Part shown: one piece after another, positions 57,565 through 63,248 of the stretch | How the letters are laid out: each line of letters begins with the position of its first letter | Position numbering within the stretch: position 1 is the stretch's first letter | NCBI RefSeq assembly: GCF_058153355.1 | Contig: NZ_CM177019.1 | Reading direction: 5' to 3' (one strand) | Length of the DNA stretch: 64,000 bases | Translations under genes and position numbers: made by a program | Notes under the pieces: model-generated | Database searches by the model: none | Seen by the model: only the letters and a program-made list of their open reading frames with translations | What the model was told of the DNA's origin: nothing

Positions 57565-57640
57565 TGGTGGGTCGTGCAGGATTCGAACCTGCGACCAATT
57601 GATTAAAAGTCAACTGCTCTACCAACTGAGCTAACGACCC
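57565..57640 (-). tRNA. lysV: tRNA-Lys (anticodon UUU)
   Basis: Reverse complement is GGGTCGTTAGCTCAGTTGGTAGAGCAGTTGACTTTTAATCAATTGGTCGCAGGTTCGAATCCTGCACGACCCACCA; 76 nt with encoded CCA. Confidence 0.95.
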
Positions 57641-57644
57641 GAAG

Positions 57645-57720
57645 TGGTGGGTGATGACGGGATCGAACCGCCGACCCCCTCCTTGTAAGGGAGGTGCTCT
57701 CCCAGCTGAGCTAATCACCC
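57645..57720 (-). tRNA. valY: tRNA-Val (anticodon UAC)
   Basis: Reverse complement is GGGTGATTAGCTCAGCTGGGAGAGCACCTCCCTTACAAGGAGGGGGTCGGCGGTTCGATCCCGTCATCACCCACCA; gene symbol from remembered operon order. Confidence 0.93.
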
Positions 57721-57766
57721 ACTTCGGTACTTCACATTGTTACAAGAAATCTAGCTGGCGAGAAAG

Positions 57767-57842
57767 TGGTGGGTGATGACGGGATCGAACCGCCGACCCC
57801 CTCCTTGTAAGGGAGGTGCTCTCCCAGCTGAGCTAATCACCC
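57767..57842 (-). tRNA. valX: tRNA-Val (anticodon UAC)
   Basis: Identical 76-nt copy. Confidence 0.93.
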
Positions 57843-57886
57843 ACTTCTCAATTTCTTGCTACACGGCGGAGACTACATAAAGTAGT

Positions 57887-57962
57887 TGGTGGGTGATGAC
57901 GGGATCGAACCGCCGACCCCCTCCTTGTAAGGGAGGTGCTCTCCCAGCTGAGCTAATCACCC
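57887..57962 (-). tRNA. valU: tRNA-Val (anticodon UAC)
   Basis: Identical 76-nt copy; first gene of the operon. Confidence 0.93.
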
Positions 57963-58219: not shown

Positions 58220-59635
58220 ATGAAAATCAAAACTCGCTTCGCGCCAAGCCCAACAGGCTATCTGCACGTTGGCGGCGCGCGTACTGCTCTTTACTCCTGG
58301 CTTTTTGCACGTAACCACGGCGGTGAGTTCGTGCTGCGTATTGAAGACACCGATCTTGAGCGTTCCACGCCGGAAGCTATCGAAGCCATTATGGATGGCA
58401 TGAACTGGCTGAGTCTGGAGTGGGATGAAGGTCCGTACTACCAGACCAAACGTTTTGATCGCTACAACGCGGTGATCGATCAGATGCTGGAAGAGGGCAC
58501 TGCCTATAAATGCTACTGCTCCAAAGAGCGTCTGGAAGCGCTGCGCGAAGAGCAAATGGCGAAAGGTGAGAAGCCGCGTTATGACGGTCGCTGCCGCCAC
58601 AGTCATGAGCATCACGCTGATGATGAGCCGTGTGTCGTACGTTTTGCTAACCCGCAGGAAGGTTCTGTTGTTTTTGACGATCAGATCCGTGGTCCGATCG
58701 AGTTCAGCAACCAGGAGCTGGATGATCTGATTATCCGCCGTACCGATGGTTCCCCAACCTATAACTTCTGTGTGGTTGTCGATGACTGGGATATGGAAAT
58801 CACCCACGTTATCCGTGGCGAAGACCATATCAACAACACACCGCGCCAGATTAACATTCTTAAGGCTCTGAAAGCGCCGGTACCGGTTTACGCGCACGTT
58901 TCTATGATCAACGGCGATGACGGTAAAAAACTGTCCAAACGTCACGGGGCGGTCAGCGTCATGCAGTATCGTGATGATGGTTATCTGCCTGAAGCACTGC
59001 TGAACTATCTGGTGCGTCTGGGCTGGTCCCACGGCGATCAGGAAATCTTCACTCGTGAAGAGATGATTAAATACTTCACTCTGAATGCCGTCAGCAAATC
59101 TGCCAGTGCGTTCAACACCGACAAGCTGCTGTGGCTGAACCATCACTACATTAACGCGCTGCCGCCGGAGTATGTTGCTACTCACTTACAATGGCACATT
59201 GAGCAGGAAAATATCGATACCCGTAACGGCCCGCAACTGGCTGATCTGGTAAAACTGCTGGGTGAACGCTGCAAGACGCTGAAAGAGATGGCTCAGAGCT
59301 GCCGTTATTTCTACGAAGATTTTGCTGAGTTCGATGCCGACGCCGCGAAAAAACATCTGCGTCCGGTAGCGCGTCAGCCGCTGGAAGTGGTTCGTGACAA
59401 ACTGGCCGCGATTACTGACTGGACCGCTGAAAACGTTCATCACGCTATTCAGGCGACGGCGGATGAGCTGGAAGTGGGTATGGGTAAAGTTGGTATGCCG
59501 CTGCGTGTCGCCGTAACCGGTGCGGGGCAGTCTCCGGCGCTGGATGTTACCGTTCACGCAATCGGTAAGACCCGCAGTATCGAGCGTATCAACAAAGCGC
59601 TGGCTTTTATTGCGGAACGCGAAAATCAGCAGTAA
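58220..59635 (+). CDS. gltX: glutamyl-tRNA synthetase
   Basis: 471-aa [48 protein letters not shown]... with HIGH-class motif and KLSKR. Confidence 0.95.
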
Positions 59636-59686
59636 TTAGCGCATAAAAGATAAACGGCAGGAGAGATACCCCTGCCGTTTTTTTAT

Positions 59687-60079
59687 TTATGCTGATTCAT
59701 CAATGTCGAGACGAGCAAGAAAATTACGAATTCCTTCGCGTGACAAAAATTGCGCAACTTTTTCTTGCTCACTGTGAGTCATGTTGTCTATTGCGCTGAT
59801 GATTTGCCGATAAGCAGGAGTGCGAATACCCGGTGCGTATTCGGCAAGGGGTTCTTCGGCTTCCAGAAGCATCGGCGTGTTATGGAAGGCTGGCGTGTTC
59901 TGAATAAACTCGCAAACTTGCGTATCGACCAGAATAAGTCTGGCACGACCGCCTTTCACGCCGGGAAATTTCTCCGTTTTCCAGCCTTTTTCTCTGATCC
60001 AACGGTTAACAGTTTGTTTAGCCACACCGAGGCATTCAGCCAGTTCTTCGGTGGTCATTTTATTGCGTAATCTTTTCAT
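59687..60079 (-). CDS. yfeD: putative HTH DNA-binding protein YfeD
   Basis: 130-aa ORF; paralogous to the adjacent ORF. Confidence 0.8.
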   Translation of the reverse strand: MKRLRNKMTTEELAECLGVAKQTVNRWIREKGWKTEKFPGVKGGRARLILVDTQVCEFIQNTPAFHNTPMLLEAEEPLAEYAPGIRTPAYRQIISAIDNMTHSEQEKVAQFLSREGIRNFLARLDIDESA

Positions 60080-60080
60080 A

Positions 60081-60440
60081 TTATTTGCTATCGCGAATCC
60101 CTAAGCGTTGTAATAACCCGATAATCCCTTCCCGCAGAAGCAAGGATGTAAACTGTTTTTGTTCAACTGGCGTCATCTCTTTCGCCAGTGTCACCAGTAA
60201 CACTTCAAGCGGCGTATCACCAGACAGGGCAGGTGCTTCTCCCTGACCTTCCGGACGTTCAGCATTGCGAATATATTCACGAACCTGTTCATTGACGTGA
60301 ACCAGTCTGGCTTTGCCACCCTGTACGCCTGGTTTTGGTGACGTCGTCCAGCCTTCCTTGCGTACCCATTTATTAATGGTCTGACGGCTATAACCGGTCA
60401 GTCTGGCAAGTTCATCTGGCGTCATCCTCTCCTTGAACAT
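60081..60440 (-). CDS. yfeC: putative HTH DNA-binding protein YfeC
   Basis: 119-aa ORF; start may be the internal Met at 60425. Confidence 0.78.
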   Translation of the reverse strand: MFKERMTPDELARLTGYSRQTINKWVRKEGWTTSPKPGVQGGKARLVHVNEQVREYIRNAERPEGQGEAPALSGDTPLEVLLVTLAKEMTPVEQKQFTSLLLREGIIGLLQRLGIRDSK

Positions 60441-60599
60441 AACAATTCCCTGAATGTATGTAGGTCTATTAGCGGTTCATTTTATAACACCACTTTACAG
60501 GAAACCGTGACATGAATAACTACTGAATGCGAGCGGTTTTCCAAAATTGTTCATTTGCCTGATTTTTCAGCGATTGAAACTACACGCTGCAATTTGCCG

Positions 60600-60628
60600 T
60601 TGACACATTCGGGCGGAATTCATATGAT
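60600..60628 (+). promoter_or_regulatory. sigma70 promoter of the tRNA-Ala operon
   Basis: TTGACA (60600-60605) - 17 nt - TATGAT (60623-60628), followed by GC-rich discriminator gccgccc. Confidence 0.6.
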
Positions 60629-60659
60629 GCCGCCCGTCAACTCGACAAGCTTTACGTGA

Positions 60660-60735
<76 letters not shown>

Positions 60736-60774
60736 AAATTTTGCACCCAGCAAATTTGGTACGTAAACGACTCG

Positions 60775-60850
<76 letters not shown>

Positions 60851-60857
60851 AAATTTC

Positions 60858-60886
60858 AAACCCTCGCTGTAAAGCGGGGGTTTTTT
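60858..60886 (+). terminator. rho-independent terminator after the tRNA-Ala pair
   Basis: ccctcgct-gtaaa-gcggggg followed by tttttt. Confidence 0.6.
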
Positions 60887-61058
60887 GTCTCTGCTTTTTG
60901 CCGCTTTTGTAATACAGTCTACGTCCGGGTCAGCGCCGCCTGGTGAAAGCATCATTGGATGAAAAATCGGCAACAGGCTGGCCTCTGTTTGCTTCGCGAT
61001 GCGAATAAACTTATTATTTGTGTGCCTGAAAACCCCGATCAGTGAGAGTTGTGTACTC

Positions 61059-63248
61059 ATGTTTGTGGAGCATAACCTGATAAAAAATATCAAGATATTC
61101 ACACTAGCGTTTACGCTCACCGTGGTACTTATTCAGCTATCCCGTTTTATTTCGCCACTTGCCGTTATCCATTCCAATTATATCTTTCTGGCGTGGATGC
61201 CACTGTGCGTAATGCTGTCAATCTTGTTTATCTTTGGCTGGCGCGGTGTCGTTCCCGTTTTATGCGGGATGTTTTGCACCAATCTGTGGAACTTTCATCT
61301 CTCTTTTTTACAGACCGCGGTCATGATCGGCAGCCAGGCGTTTGCAGTCCTGTGTGCCTGTGCAATATTACGCTGGCAATTGGGAACGCGTTGGCGTTAT
61401 GGTTTGACCAGCCGATACGTCTGGCAACGTCTCTTCTGGCTTGGTTTGGTGGCACCGATTGGCATCAAATGCAGCATGTATTTTGTGGGGAATTTCTTTG
61501 ATTTTCCGCTAAAGATATCTACCTTTTTCGGCGATGCGGATGCCATTTTCACAGTCGTTGATTTACTAAGCCTTTTCACCGCTGTGCTGATTTACAACAT
61601 GCTTTTCTACTATCTCACTCGCATGATTGTAAGTCCCCACTTTGCGCAGATATTGTGGCGCAGGGATATCGCTCCGTCGTTGGGCAAAGAGAAACGCGCA
61701 TTTACCTTAAGCTGGCTGGCAGCGTTAAGCGTGCTGCTACTTCTGTTGTGCACACCTTATGAAAACGACTTTATTGCCGGTTACCTGGTACCCGTTTTCT
61801 TCATCATCTTTACCCTCGGGGTCGGTAAGCTTCGCTATCCGTTTTTAAATCTCACTTGGGCTGTTTCAACGCTTTGCCTGCTGAATTACAACCAGAACTT
61901 TTTGCAAGGGGTACTAACCGAATATTCGCTGGCATTTATTCTCGCGGTGCTGATTTCCTTTAGTGTTTGCCTGCTCTATATGGTGCGCATTTATCATCGT
62001 AGTGAATGGCTTAACCGACGCTGGCATTTGCAGGCGCTGACCGATCCGTTAACGCTCTTACCCAACTTTCGCGCGTTGGAACAAGCACCAGAGCAAGAGG
62101 CTGGCAAGAGTTTTTGCTGCCTGCGTATTGATAACCTTGAGTTTATGAGTCGTCATTACGGCTTAATGATGCGCGTTCACTGTATCCGCTCAATTTACCG
62201 TACGTTAATGCCGCTGATGCAGGAAAACGAAAAGTTGTATCAATTGCCGGGGAGTGAACTGCTATTAGTACTGAGCGGGCCGGAAACGGAAGGGCGACTC
62301 CAGCATATGGTTAACATCCTGAATAGTCGGCAAATTCACTGGAACAATACCGGGCTGGATATGGGCTATGGTGCCGCCTGGGGACATTTTGATGGAAATC
62401 AGGAAACCCTGCAACCCTTGTTGGGGCAGTTAAGCTGGCTGGCGGAGCAATCCTGCGCACATCATCATGTGCTGGCGCTGGATAGCAGAGAGGAGATGGT
62501 TTCCGGGCAAACCACTAAACAGGTGCTATTGCTGAATACCATTCGTACTGCATTAGATCAGGGCGATTTGCTGCTCTACGCCCAGCCAATTCGCAACAAA
62601 GAGGGTGAAGGTTATGATGAGATCCTCGCGCGACTGAAATATGACGGCGGCATTATGACCCCGGATAAGTTTCTGCCCCTTATTGCTCAGTTTAACCTTA
62701 GCGCGCGTTTTGATTTGCAAGTGCTGGAATCCCTGTTGAAGTGGCTGGCAACACATCCTTGCGACAAAAAAGGCCCGCGCTTTTCAGTCAATTTAATGCC
62801 GCTCACGCTGCTGCAAAAGAATATTGCCGGGCGGATTATTCGTCTGTTTAAGCGTTATCACATCTCCCCGCAGGCGGTCATTCTCGAGATCACCGAGGAG
62901 CAGGCATTTTCTAACGCAGAAAGCAGCATGTACAACATCGAGCAGCTGCATAAGTTTGGTTTCCGGATTGCGATTGATGACTTTGGCACCGGATATGCCA
63001 ACTACGAACGGTTAAAGCGTTTGCAGGCTGATATCATCAAAATTGATGGCGTCTTTGTGAAAGATATCGTCACGAACACGCTGGATGCGATGATTGTGAG
63101 ATCAATTACCGATCTGGCGAAAGCGAAGTCATTGAGTGTGGTCGCGGAGTTTGTCGAGACGCCACAGCAGCAGGCGCTATTGCATAAGCTCGGGGTGCAA
63201 TATCTGCAAGGGTATTTGATTGGTCGCCCTCAGCCATTAGCTGATTAA
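61059..63248 (+). CDS. pdeA: membrane-anchored c-di-GMP phosphodiesterase (degenerate GGDEF-like region plus EAL domain)
   Basis: MFVEHNLIKNIKIF... hydrophobic N-terminal half and C-terminal EAL-type domain; internal Met of track ORF 60999..63248 by synteny with K-12 yfeA. Confidence 0.85.
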   Translation: MFVEHNLIKNIKIFTLAFTLTVVLIQLSRFISPLAVIHSNYIFLAWMPLCVMLSILFIFGWRGVVPVLCGMFCTNLWNFHLSFLQTAVMIGSQAFAVLCACAILRWQLGTRWRYGLTSRYVWQRLFWLGLVAPIGIKCSMYFVGNFFDFPLKISTFFGDADAIFTVVDLLSLFTAVLIYNMLFYYLTRMIVSPHFAQILWRRDIAPSLGKEKRAFTLSWLAALSVLLLLLCTPYENDFIAGYLVPVFFIIFTLGVGKLRYPFLNLTWAVSTLCLLNYNQNFLQGVLTEYSLAFILAVLISFSVCLLYMVRIYHRSEWLNRRWHLQALTDPLTLLPNFRALEQAPEQEAGKSFCCLRIDNLEFMSRHYGLMMRVHCIRSIYRTLMPLMQENEKLYQLPGSELLLVLSGPETEGRLQHMVNILNSRQIHWNNTGLDMGYGAAWGHFDGNQETLQPLLGQLSWLAEQSCAHHHVLALDSREEMVSGQTTKQVLLLNTIRTALDQGDLLLYAQPIRNKEGEGYDEILARLKYDGGIMTPDKFLPLIAQFNLSARFDLQVLESLLKWLATHPCDKKGPRFSVNLMPLTLLQKNIAGRIIRLFKRYHISPQAVILEITEEQAFSNAESSMYNIEQLHKFGFRIAIDDFGTGYANYERLKRLQADIIKIDGVFVKDIVTNTLDAMIVRSITDLAKAKSLSVVAEFVETPQQQALLHKLGVQYLQGYLIGRPQPLAD

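Follow-up and report, generated by a model that had tools for sequence, protein, structure and literature searches.

The 64,000 bp stretch of DNA analyzed here (the window; contig NZ_CM177019.1 of RefSeq assembly GCF_058153355.1) contains two small adjacent genes, yfeC and yfeD, which are true full-length tandem duplicates. The pair is already known and belongs to the ordinary core gene content of E. coli and related bacteria. It is a textbook example of a core bacterial locus in which the two copies from an old tandem duplication have diverged asymmetrically, and its significance extends little beyond annotation hygiene. Taking all of the evidence together, we consider it highly probable that the genes derive from an ancient duplication, have an architecture like that of the phage Mu repressor, share a constrained promoter region, and encode dimeric DNA-binding proteins that act mainly as repressors.

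Organization of the yfeC-yfeD locus

Both genes are encoded on the minus strand. yfeC (60081–60440) codes for a 119-residue protein from its first ATG, beginning MFKERMTPDELARLTG and ending at a TAA stop codon (60081–60083), and yfeD (59687–60079), the downstream and faster-evolving paralogue, codes for a 130-residue protein beginning MKRLRNKMTTEELAECLG. A RefSeq locus with 98.9% identity carries a matching annotation of the yfeC open reading frame, and both the RefSeq PGAP call and the window support a YfeC length of 119 aa, whereas the K-12 annotation begins at Met6 and gives 114 aa. The genes are the same, and at the same locus, as E. coli K-12 YfeC (b2398) and YfeD (b2399), which are named in RefSeq as 'DNA-binding transcriptional dual regulator YfeC' and 'MerR family transcriptional regulator' respectively; DNA identity with K-12 is 95.8% for yfeC and 89.8% for yfeD, and there is otherwise little beyond allelic differences. 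The pair is flanked on one side by gltX and on the other by the divergently transcribed tRNA-Ala(GGC) genes alaX and alaW, and the arrangement gltX, yfeD, yfeC, two tRNA-Ala genes and pdeA is matched in 5425 of 5426 complete E. coli genomes. A first-pass annotation made from the letters of the window had reported two adjacent minus-strand open reading frames exactly here, and the peptide strings that it quoted are both present in their products; its names, YfeD and YfeC, agree with the gene order in these genomes.

The yfeC stop and the yfeD start are separated by a single nucleotide (TAA-T-ATG; 60077–60083, minus strand), as read from the sequence, and because this leaves no space for a promoter or a terminator at the junction, the two genes form one operon and are probably translationally coupled. 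The spacing is tight in 80 of 80 species loci (the best 80 of 267 genome matches), with 5–32 nt between the aligned parts of yfeC and yfeD, and a terminator scan places the only terminator of the operon 3' of yfeD. Here, between the convergent gltX and yfeD genes, lies a GC-rich hairpin (59652–59680), which is likely a bidirectional terminator. The scan identifies its 12-bp stem on the minus strand, and the sequence read on the plus strand has TTTTTTT after this stem. The two tRNA-Ala(GGC) genes (60661–60736 and 60776–60851, plus strand) are predicted by ARAGORN and match Rfam RF00005 with 63 bits each, and they are followed by an intrinsic terminator (60858–60883, plus strand; terminator scan) with an 11-bp stem and a T-run.

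YfeC and YfeD are full-length paralogues

Comparison of YfeC with YfeD by BLASTP gives a score of 85.5 bits (E=1e-27) with 38% identity and 57% positives, in an alignment spanning residues 4–129 and 2–118 of the two proteins and reaching both C-termini. The last 44 residues alone align ungapped with E=7e-9 and 37% identity. Both proteins are also strong members of the Pfam YfeC-like family PF07037, formerly known as DUF1323, for which the full model has 122 positions and the gathering threshold is 22.9 bits: YfeD scores 206.1 bits (E=2e-61; residues 8–129 on model positions 1–122) and YfeC 171.8 bits (E=8.6e-51; residues 6–118 on positions 1–122). YfeC and YfeD have nearly identical recognition helices (QT[IV]N[KR]W[IV]R) and wings (GV[KQ]GG[KR]ARL), and most of the divergence between them lies in the linker. 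The proposal of the first-pass annotation that the genes align along their N-terminal halves as a tandem duplication stands as to similarity and as to duplication, the latter being supported by full-length PF07037 membership, the fixed gene order in the 80 species loci, and single-copy outgroups and the tree described below; it understated the extent of the similarity, which runs to the C-termini.

Domain organization

An AlphaFold2 model of YfeC contains a winged helix-turn-helix at residues 5–61 (60258–60428, minus strand; block pLDDT 80–86), with the order strand, helix, helix, strand, strand, helix and the wing motif GW..S.KPGVQGGKA. A disordered stretch (residues 63–74) separates this from a C-terminal helical hairpin at residues 77–112 (60105–60212, minus strand; helices 77–87 and 91–112, block pLDDT 81–85), which we infer to be a putative dimerization module. 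Structure prediction, one of the checks suggested with the duplication proposal, supports the same architecture in YfeD. In a model in which the two proteins are fused, the YfeD winged helix-turn-helix at residues 7–61 (59897–60061, minus strand) has the same order of secondary structure elements, and its C-terminal hairpin at residues 88–123 (59711–59818, minus strand) corresponds to helices 237–247 and 251–272 of the fusion. The family motif of the hairpin, M-T-x-x-E-Q...LL-R-E-G-I-x-G-L-L-x-R-L, is kept in both paralogues.

The N-terminal fold class of YfeC and YfeD is that of the MerR/excisionase/BldC superfamily, and Foldseek gives domain-level matches of the N-terminal domain to BldC (6ama), the Pukovnik Xis (4j2n), CarH, 1tns and the Mu repressor (1qpm). 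There are no full-length structural neighbors at E<=0.001 in Foldseek searches of PDB and BFVD, in which the meaningful matches are to the N-terminal domain only. YfeD scores 31.3 bits with HTH_17, and the excisionase model TIGR01764 is near its threshold; the MerR_1 model gives E=0.19 and 0.15, at about 12 bits against a cutoff of 21.6. In contrast to MerR, YfeC and YfeD have neither the long antiparallel coiled-coil helix nor an effector-binding C-terminal domain, and the C-terminal two-helix hairpin is specific to the YfeC/YfeD family. The RefSeq designation of YfeD as a 'MerR family' regulator is loose.

The control region shared with the tRNA-Ala genes

A 220-bp divergent control region (60441–60660) separates yfeC from the tRNA-Ala genes, and its length varies only from 216 to 225 bp in the 78 loci in which both flanks are measurable. 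It is 98.2% identical to that of K-12, more than the 95.8% of yfeC and the 89.8% of yfeD, and its mean pairwise identity of 74% compares with 56% at gltX 4-fold degenerate sites in the same genomes. The strong divergent tRNA promoter of the first-pass annotation is readily recognized in a promoter scan as the alaX/alaW sequence TTGACA-17-TATGAT (60600–60628, plus strand), which agrees with the consensus at 11 of 12 positions, is located 32 nt upstream of tRNA-Ala(GGC), and has a GC-rich discriminator GCCGCCCGTC downstream; its -35, -10 and discriminator show little or no variation in 78 species. A conserved block, TTCAATCGCTGAAAAA.CA.GCAAATGA (60551–60578), is evident in the conservation profile 22–49 bp upstream of the tRNA -35 hexamer, and is a candidate for an upstream activating (FIS/UP-type) or shared operator site.

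The candidate yfeCD promoter (60481–60489, minus strand) has an extended -10 sequence, TGtTATAAA, and no good -35; it is near-invariant in the 78-species alignment, which suggests a promoter function, and it was not picked up in a scan for consensus promoters. Transcription of yfeC would be predicted to start at about 60472–60474 (minus strand). A Shine-Dalgarno-like AGGGA (60447–60451, minus strand) is located 6 nt before the first yfeC ATG and takes the form cAGGaAA or cAGGGAA across species. An Rfam search revealed the two tRNAs and no additional RNA elements in the intergenic region. We propose that yfeC and yfeD are co-transcribed from a promoter within this constrained 220-bp region, which they would have in common with the divergent alaXW promoter.

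DNA binding, regulation and dimerization

The description of these proteins as having uncharacterised function is outdated for YfeC, for which a regulon determined by ChIP-exo and RNA-seq, an extracellular DNA (eDNA) phenotype, and an in vivo colonization phenotype have been published (PMC8464067, PMC5847654). ChIP-exo identified 50 sites for YfeC and 36 for YfeD, and 16 of 20 direct YfeC targets are repressed (PMC8464067); YfeD has ChIP-exo sites without an assigned role. In a yfeC deletion, yfeD mRNA is increased by log2 4.33 (padj 5e-133), which is a hint of autoregulation by YfeC, although the increase could also derive from the resistance cassette or a polar effect. The published yfeC-deletion phenotypes may partly reflect 20-fold over-expression of yfeD.

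In NC_000913.3 coordinates, the YfeC peak that was published under the name 'yfeC' is located about 400 bp away from the start of this gene, where the distal tRNA-Ala gene has its 3' end and terminator, and not at the yfeC promoter. Genes for tRNAs are hot spots in ChIP experiments. For each protein we took the six strongest sites from NC_000913.3, adding the 'yfeC' site to the YfeC set, with a coordinate conversion accurate to about +/-3 bp. The K-12 yfeC intergenic region and the six YfeD sites have no 7-mer in common, inspection of the seven YfeC sites by eye showed no clear inverted repeat shared by them, and the reported 'TTC-rich inverted repeat' was not located in the yfeC promoter. Most likely, YfeC and YfeD would bind DNA as dimers through the C-terminal hairpin and would mainly repress dispersed targets, with YfeC probably repressing its own operon.

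These dimers could in principle be of either kind, and the proposal that YfeC and YfeD are diverged subunits of an obligate heterodimer recognizing asymmetric operators is a plausible but unlikely alternative. The genes are always together, in the same order and tightly spaced in the 80 of 80 species loci (best 80 of 267), a constant pairing that favors 1:1 synthesis of the two proteins; the hairpin is kept in both, and they have a ChIP-exo peak in common at the 5' end of sfsB. However, the published lists of 50 and 36 sites overlap at essentially one site, and because YfeC and YfeD have almost the same recognition helix and wing, there is no obvious need for asymmetric recognition. A single-chain AlphaFold2 prediction of YfeC-(GGGGS)6-YfeD using 33 paired orthologues yields no confident assembly and supports no particular complex, nor does it count against one (pTM 0.31); confidence in the C-terminal helices is below that of the YfeC monomer, and the output has no inter-domain error map. 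Moreover, the outgroup functions with one copy and one Enterobacter locus (L051) has three.

Age, distribution and evolution of the duplication

The order pdeA< tRNA-Ala< >yfeC >yfeD <gltX is present in the window and in 80 of 80 Enterobacteriaceae species loci, these being the best 80 of 267 matches, with all 80 in this family; distribution beyond the Enterobacteriaceae was assessed from a representative search and a few look-ups. Single copies are located beside gltX in Chimaeribacter, a Yersiniaceae outgroup, and on one unplaced metagenomic contig (L087). In a distance-based neighbor-joining tree, constructed without bootstrapping, the first-gene and second-gene proteins constitute separate clades, with the Chimaeribacter and P0266 singletons outside of both, and these separate clades together with a single-copy outgroup in the same neighborhood argue for one old tandem duplication. 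We propose that a gene for a small DNA-binding regulator of the chromosome was duplicated in tandem once, long ago, to give yfeC and yfeD, and that this probably took place at the base of the Enterobacteriaceae or close to it.

Within the same genomes (best 80 of 267), YfeC orthologues are 69–94% identical to the window protein and the second-gene products 38–96%, with YfeD orthologues dropping to about 40–55% identity where YfeC holds at 70–80%. YfeD has evolved faster than YfeC since the duplication. The open reading frames are intact in every complete locus recovered, the two loci with one detected open reading frame (L076 and L089) being cut at a contig end, and the dN/dS values relative to K-12 (0.020 for yfeC and 0.083 for yfeD) indicate that both copies are under purifying selection.

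The faster change in YfeD raises the question of whether it is a decaying or neofunctionalized copy without sequence-specific binding, acting for example as a modulator that titrates YfeC. Relative to K-12, dS is 0.449 for yfeD and 0.185 for yfeC, there are 8 amino acid differences in YfeD and 1 in YfeC, and the YfeD ChIP-exo footprints are very narrow (8–10 bp) and yield no motif. Nonetheless, a yfeD dN/dS of 0.083 reflects strong purifying selection, the gene is nowhere disrupted in the complete loci, all of the invariant helix-turn-helix and wing residues are kept with most of the divergence being held by the linker, and YfeD associates with DNA at 36 ChIP-exo sites, such that we regard loss of specific binding as improbable.

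All of the species examined have the pair as a fixed core locus, and it is not mobile. No phage relatives were found among 50,697 phage records, and the PHROG matches are weak and mostly confined to the helix-turn-helix. There are 13 matches in the plasmid collection, 12 of which are to non-mobilisable elements; among the 12 matches listed, at least five are chromosome-sized (1.4–5.4 Mb) and the others are of 50–727 kb. Three long multi-HTH proteins (P0282, P0289 and P0300) score on the family profile, but are generic HTH arrays and were rejected as relatives.

Relationship to the phage Mu repressor

The nearest characterized relative of the YfeC-like family, across both the DNA-binding and central regions, is the phage Mu c repressor. 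Alignment of the two families with hhalign gives a probability of 97.1% (E=5.6e-11) over 112 columns, with YfeC-like family columns 6–122 on Mu c repressor residues 14–134, and the Mu c repressor itself just passes the PF07037 cutoff (23.1 bits versus 22.9; residues 42–132). YfeC has a phmmer match to the MuA I-alpha domain (1tns; E=0.0097), Foldseek matches 1tns and 1qpm at the domain level with probabilities of 0.97–0.99, and some YfeC orthologues are already labeled in UniRef as 'HTH Mu-type domain-containing protein'. On PF02316 (HTH_Tnp_Mu_1), YfeC scores 14.7 bits (E=0.038) against a threshold of 23.3, and YfeD is not listed.

Mu c (Rep, 196 aa) and MuA I-alpha have in common with YfeC and YfeD a winged helix-turn-helix with the wing GW-x4-5-GV(K/Q)GG(K/R)A, and the homology to the Mu repressor covers the DNA-binding domain, the linker and the next helical segment, which reads LE-P-x-E...LKLLSKGGL in Mu and M-T-x-x-EQ...LLLREGI in the YfeC-like family. 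The YfeC hairpin aligns to Mu repressor residues of about 100–134. The C-termini of YfeC and YfeD correspond to residue 134–140 or thereabouts of the Mu repressor, the last ~55 residues of which (about 140–196) are missing from both; this C-terminal tail governs sensitivity of the Mu repressor to ClpXP. The architecture of YfeC and YfeD, consisting of a winged helix-turn-helix of the Mu-type/MerR-excisionase class, a disordered linker and a hairpin, is homologous to Mu c residues 14–134, and Mu c offers experiments on these proteins a concrete template in both structure and function.

It is tempting to suppose that yfeCD is a domesticated and duplicated Mu-type immunity repressor that has kept part of the c/ner logic, but we think this very unlikely. 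The ChIP-exo peak that YfeC and YfeD have at the 5' end of sfsB is the strongest of those for YfeD, and sfsB (nlp) is the chromosomal homologue of Mu Ner. In a Mu prophage the repressor gene is followed by a divergent ner and then by transposase genes A and B; yfeCD is not in a prophage, and no ner or transposase genes are adjacent to it; its neighbors are gltX, tRNA genes and pdeA. If the supposition were true, there would be an unlinked cellular repressor/Ner-like switch in all Enterobacteriaceae, a Mu-like circuit of phage regulatory parts fixed across a whole bacterial family. Such a switch might also cross-react with the operators of Mu-like phages, or with the unusually constrained control region of the neighboring tRNA-Ala genes.

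Toxin–antitoxin and other assignments

The yfeD/yfeC genes were listed by RASTA-Bacteria as a high-confidence new toxin–antitoxin pair (PMC2374986), a label repeated by later papers. As in type II modules with a DNA-binding antitoxin and a toxin, the two genes are small, adjacent, tightly spaced and co-directional with a helix-turn-helix in the product, and there are sub-threshold matches to PF15943 (YdaS_toxin; E=0.0014 and 0.039). These matches are limited to the helix-turn-helix, however, and no toxin family scores above threshold with either protein in Pfam, NCBIfam or PADLOC. Unlike the partners in a type II system, YfeC and YfeD are paralogous DNA binders that agree in their two-domain architecture and in their conserved DNA-binding residues, a single-copy ancestor exists, the locus is core and immobile and not patchy, and yfeC deletion mutants are viable (PMC8464067, PMC5847654, PMC11508082). 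A toxin–antitoxin role is thus extremely improbable and the label should be dropped.

The chance that YfeC and YfeD resemble one another merely as generic helix-turn-helix proteins, by accident or convergence and with no duplication, is negligible: many HTH families do give weak cross-matches to both, but the reading is refuted by the full-length E-value and by that of the 44 C-terminal residues outside of the HTH, and the PF07037 matches of the two proteins each span all of its 122 positions. As for membership in a defense system, there is a sub-threshold HTH match to the MADS component mad1 only, and this candidate was rejected.

Organisation of the yfeCD locus

The yfeD (59687-60079; 130 aa) and yfeC (60081-60440; 119 aa) ORFs are both on the minus strand, as placed in the first-pass annotation, and their names match the RefSeq annotation. 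A 1.1-kb stretch of the locus is matched in 5425 of 5426 complete E. coli genomes, with the top match (98.9%) annotated as gltX, yfeD, yfeC, two tRNA-Ala genes and pdeA. Gene order is identical in K-12, with 97.5%, 95.8% and 89.8% identity for gltX, yfeC and yfeD respectively, and these similarities indicate that the window derives from an Escherichia chromosome somewhat diverged from K-12.

The yfeD gene is convergent with gltX (58220-59635, plus strand), and yfeC is divergent from the two tRNA-Ala(GGC) genes (60661-60736 and 60776-60851, plus strand). A single base separates the yfeC stop from the yfeD start (TAA-T-ATG; 60077-60083, minus strand), and a GC-rich hairpin at 59652-59680 lies beyond the yfeD 3' end, where it also ends gltX; from this organisation we infer that yfeC and yfeD must form one transcript, with their translation probably coupled. 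Divergent from gltX is a tRNA cluster of the valU-valX-valY-lysV type (three tRNA-Val(UAC) and one tRNA-Lys(UUU); 57565-57962, minus strand), such that two stable-RNA operons bracket gltX and yfeCD, a layout also present in Cedecea and Chimaeribacter.

The yfeC start is ambiguous (60426-60440, minus strand): the K-12 protein is 114 aa, starting at Met6, and PGAP and the window ORF have 119 aa from an upstream ATG. Synonymous variation of the Arg5 codon over the species loci (CGA, CGG, AGG, AGA and CGT, with rare ATG variants) favours translation from the first ATG. The Lys3 codon is always AAG, generating a Shine-Dalgarno-like AAGGA 7 nt 5' of the second ATG, and both starts may be used. The mechanical pdeA ORF begins at 60999 (plus strand; 749 aa), and the 729-aa RefSeq product in near-identical genomes implies a start near 61059, which would leave 60999-61058 outside the gene.

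Paralogy of YfeC and YfeD

The first-pass annotation proposed that YfeC and YfeD are related along their N-terminal halves. The relationship is well supported (BLASTP E=1e-27, 38% identity between YfeD residues 4-129 and YfeC residues 2-118) but is not limited to the N-terminus, as the C-terminal 44 residues alone align without gaps (E=7e-9). Both proteins cover all 122 positions of the 'YfeC-like' family PF07037 (206 bits for YfeD and 172 bits for YfeC; threshold 22.9), and together these matches refute the reading that the likeness is that of a generic HTH. Alignment of 12 sequences, including both paralogues from several genera, reveals two conserved blocks joined by a variable linker of differing length. 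The first is the HTH and wing (T-x-x-E-L-A...Q-T-[IV]-N-[KR]-W...G-W...G-V-[KQ]-G-G-[KR]-A-R-L) and the second is C-terminal (M-[TS]-x-x-E-Q...L-x-R-E-G-[IL]-x-G-[LF]-[LM]-x-R-L).

The earlier description of these proteins as uncharacterised no longer holds for YfeC. The pair itself has been catalogued before: each gene has a name, the two fall in a single Pfam family, and they have been partly studied, with ChIP-exo data published. The present analysis adds that the paralogy is full-length, that the duplication can be dated and was asymmetric, and that the control region shared with the tRNA-Ala genes is strongly constrained, together with rejection of a toxin-antitoxin label and an extended homology to the phage Mu immunity repressor (Mu c).

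Distribution and history of the duplication

Scanning a single genome for each species identified 267 relatives, and the best 80 of these were analysed. All 80 are in Enterobacteriaceae (Escherichia, Salmonella, Citrobacter, Enterobacter, Klebsiella, Kluyvera, Kosakonia, Atlantibacter and Yokenella), and in every one another member of the family comes immediately after yfeC. Wherever the contig is long enough, the tRNA-Ala genes and pdeA are on one flank and gltX is on the other, except in Kosakonia-type loci, in several of which gltX was not found adjacent. Enterobacter sp. BIGb0383 (locus L051, 4001-5144) has three tandem members, yfeC and two yfeD-type genes that are mutual closest relatives, pointing to a second, lineage-specific duplication. 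The more distant representatives recovered by exhaustive searching with the family profile, in Cedecea, Cronobacter, Scandinavium, Entomohabitans and a number of metagenomic contigs, are for the most part the second genes of pairs; one metagenomic contig (L090, 1054-3561) has a methionine-type ABC transporter (lipoprotein, permease, and ATPase with a NIL domain) between the yfeD-type gene and gltX. Chimaeribacter (Yersiniaceae) has a single copy in an equivalent neighbourhood, in the order nupC, two tRNA-Ala genes, a gene for a formate/nitrite transporter, the lone yfeC-like gene and convergent gltX, and another singleton adjoins gltX on an unplaced contig.

In a neighbour-joining tree the first genes group in a clade with short branches and the second genes in one with long branches, with the singletons outside both. 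This topology indicates that a single duplication took place close to the base of the Enterobacteriaceae, after which YfeD evolved faster. In the same genomes, identity to the window protein is 69-94% for YfeC and 38-96% for the second-gene products. The tandem duplication proposed in the first-pass annotation is thus borne out by full-length similarity, synteny and tree topology; its observation was correct and its interpretation essentially right. The dN/dS values relative to K-12 (0.020 for yfeC and 0.083 for yfeD) show that both genes are still under purifying selection, and the yfeD value, with conservation of the DNA-binding residues, contradicts the idea that YfeD is decaying. The dS of yfeD relative to K-12 is unusually high (0.449, versus 0.185 for yfeC and 0.116 for gltX) and E. 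coli genomes fall into two identity classes for this stretch (95-99% and 90-95%), suggesting either a long-standing allelic dimorphism at yfeD or recombination there.

The YfeC-like family is small, and its members are chromosomal. Of 1.84 billion cluster representatives, just 270 match at E<=0.001, many of them fragments; a search of 50,697 phage records gave zero relatives, and at least five of 13 matches in a plasmid collection are to chromosome-sized records (1.4-5.4 Mb). Three longer proteins (P0282, P0289 and P0300; 427-1312 aa) were rejected as relatives, having 7-13 tandem HTH units that match dozens of generic HTH models in Pfam. The pair has been predicted to be a toxin-antitoxin system (PMC2374986; repeated in PMC5847654), a label that fails because the partners are paralogues, neither contains a toxin domain, and the locus belongs to the core genome and is not mobile.

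We consider it very probable that one ancestral small Mu-repressor-like regulator underwent a single old tandem duplication to give yfeC and yfeD, which would be expressed as a two-gene operon and both be kept by selection as DNA-binding proteins; the evolutionary part of this explanation is held with greater confidence still.

The control region shared with the tRNA-Ala genes

The strong tRNA promoter reported as divergent from yfeC is present as TTGACA-17-TATGAT (60600-60628, plus strand), matching 11 of 12 consensus positions and followed by a GC-rich discriminator upstream of alaX/alaW. The yfeC/tRNA-Ala spacer (60441-60660) is 216-225 bp in the 78 loci measured, with a mean pairwise identity of 74% compared with 56% at gltX 4-fold degenerate sites in the same genomes; relative to K-12 it is 98.2% identical, above the yfeC and yfeD coding sequences. 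Alignment of 78 distinct species sequences shows invariant blocks that include the tRNA -35, -10 and discriminator, and an extended -10 element, TGtTATAAA (60481-60489, minus strand). The latter is a candidate promoter that likely drives the yfeCD operon. A conserved 28-bp block upstream of the tRNA -35 (60551-60578) might serve as an operator or as an upstream activating site. Rfam searches of the intergenic region report tRNAs alone. An Escherichia-specific inverted repeat (CGGGCGGAAT/ATGCCGCCCG) flanks the tRNA -10 hexamer (60610-60636).

Predicted structure and relationship to the Mu repressor

The AlphaFold2 model of YfeC (mean pLDDT 75) places a winged HTH at residues 5-61 and two helices at 77-87 and 91-112, with residues 63-74 disordered, and YfeD is predicted to have the same order of elements. 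The C-terminal hairpin is a likely dimerisation module. A PDB sequence search retrieves 1tns, the I-alpha domain of MuA (E=0.0097), by way of a wing motif, GW...GVKGGKA, and Foldseek neighbours (BldC, mycobacteriophage Xis, 1tns and the Mu repressor domain 1qpm) match at the domain level only; a BFVD search gives generic MerR/excisionase-like HTH matches alone. Matches to PHROG 'transcriptional repressor' families are weak but span both domains, and the family was therefore compared with Mu c. Mu c residues 42-132 score 23.1 bits on PF07037 (gathering threshold 22.9), and hhalign of a profile of 23 YfeC-like proteins with one of 12 Mu-type repressors gives a 97.1% probability (E=5.6e-11) over 112 aligned columns, with family positions 6-122 on Mu repressor 14-134. 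The whole YfeC/YfeD architecture thus corresponds to the DNA-binding domain and central region of Mu-type repressors, whose last ~55 residues have no counterpart; the C-terminal tail of the Mu repressor governs ClpXP sensitivity. YfeC and YfeD also differ in not lying in a prophage, and they are not members of HTH_Tnp_Mu_1 (PF02316; 14.7 versus 23.3 bits). Some orthologues already have the database name 'HTH Mu-type domain-containing protein', so that all that may be new, a modest point, is the continuation of the homology past the N-terminal domain. RefSeq names YfeD of a near-identical locus a 'MerR family transcriptional regulator', but MerR Pfam models score ~12 bits (E=0.15-0.19) compared with full-length PF07037 matches, and the name is right at the superfamily level only.

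Binding sites and regulation

ChIP-exo of the tagged proteins identified 50 sites for YfeC and 36 for YfeD, with a TTC-rich inverted repeat reported as the YfeC motif (Gao et al. 2021, PMC8464067). Deletion of yfeC gave 205 differentially expressed genes, 16 of 20 direct targets were repressed by YfeC, and an earlier eDNA-release phenotype is cited (PMC8464067). We recovered no common motif among the strongest YfeC and YfeD sites, nor in the yfeC upstream region. The two site lists are nearly non-overlapping, which argues against an obligate YfeC-YfeD heterodimer. The proteins may act as homodimers, as heterodimers or as both, and an AlphaFold2 model of the fused chains (pTM 0.31) favours no particular arrangement.

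In the supplements of PMC8464067, yfeC deletion raises yfeD mRNA 20-fold (log2 4.33, padj 5e-133) and lowers ybaQ 36-fold (log2 5.16), and YfeD has a strong RNAP-associated site in the ybaQ promoter (NC_000913.3 508186-508193), ~25 bp 5' of the gene start. These changes fit repression by YfeC of its own operon and by YfeD of ybaQ, but could equally be a cassette effect, since the deletion construction is not described in the text examined. Autoregulation of the operon by YfeC is likely, and some 'YfeC' phenotypes may be caused by YfeD over-expression, given the yfeD rise, the ybaQ fall and the YfeD site at ybaQ. The published 'yfeC' peak, when converted, falls where the distal tRNA-Ala gene ends and its terminator lies, ~400 bp away from the start of yfeC, and does not demonstrate binding at the yfeC promoter.

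The sole site common to both proteins is within codons 8-18 of sfsB/nlp (NC_000913.3 3334932-3334961, converted), and is the strongest for YfeD (signal-to-noise 57.6). The unrelated factor YciT peaks ~50 bp away, so this may be a ChIP hot spot, and sfsB is absent from the genes reported as differentially expressed in the yfeC deletion. The sfsB/nlp gene is the chromosomal homologue of phage Mu Ner, notable given the likeness of YfeC and YfeD to Mu c; that the three represent a domesticated Mu-like repressor/Ner circuit seems to us very improbable.

An E. coli K1 yfeC mutant is less lethal and a poor coloniser of the small intestine in neonatal rats (PMC5847654), and yfeC deletion in EHEC does not lower LEE1 expression (PMC11508082). 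Most papers that use the names 'yfeC' or 'yfeD' concern an unrelated iron/manganese ABC transporter, yfeABCD, from Yersinia, Haemophilus and Actinobacillus.
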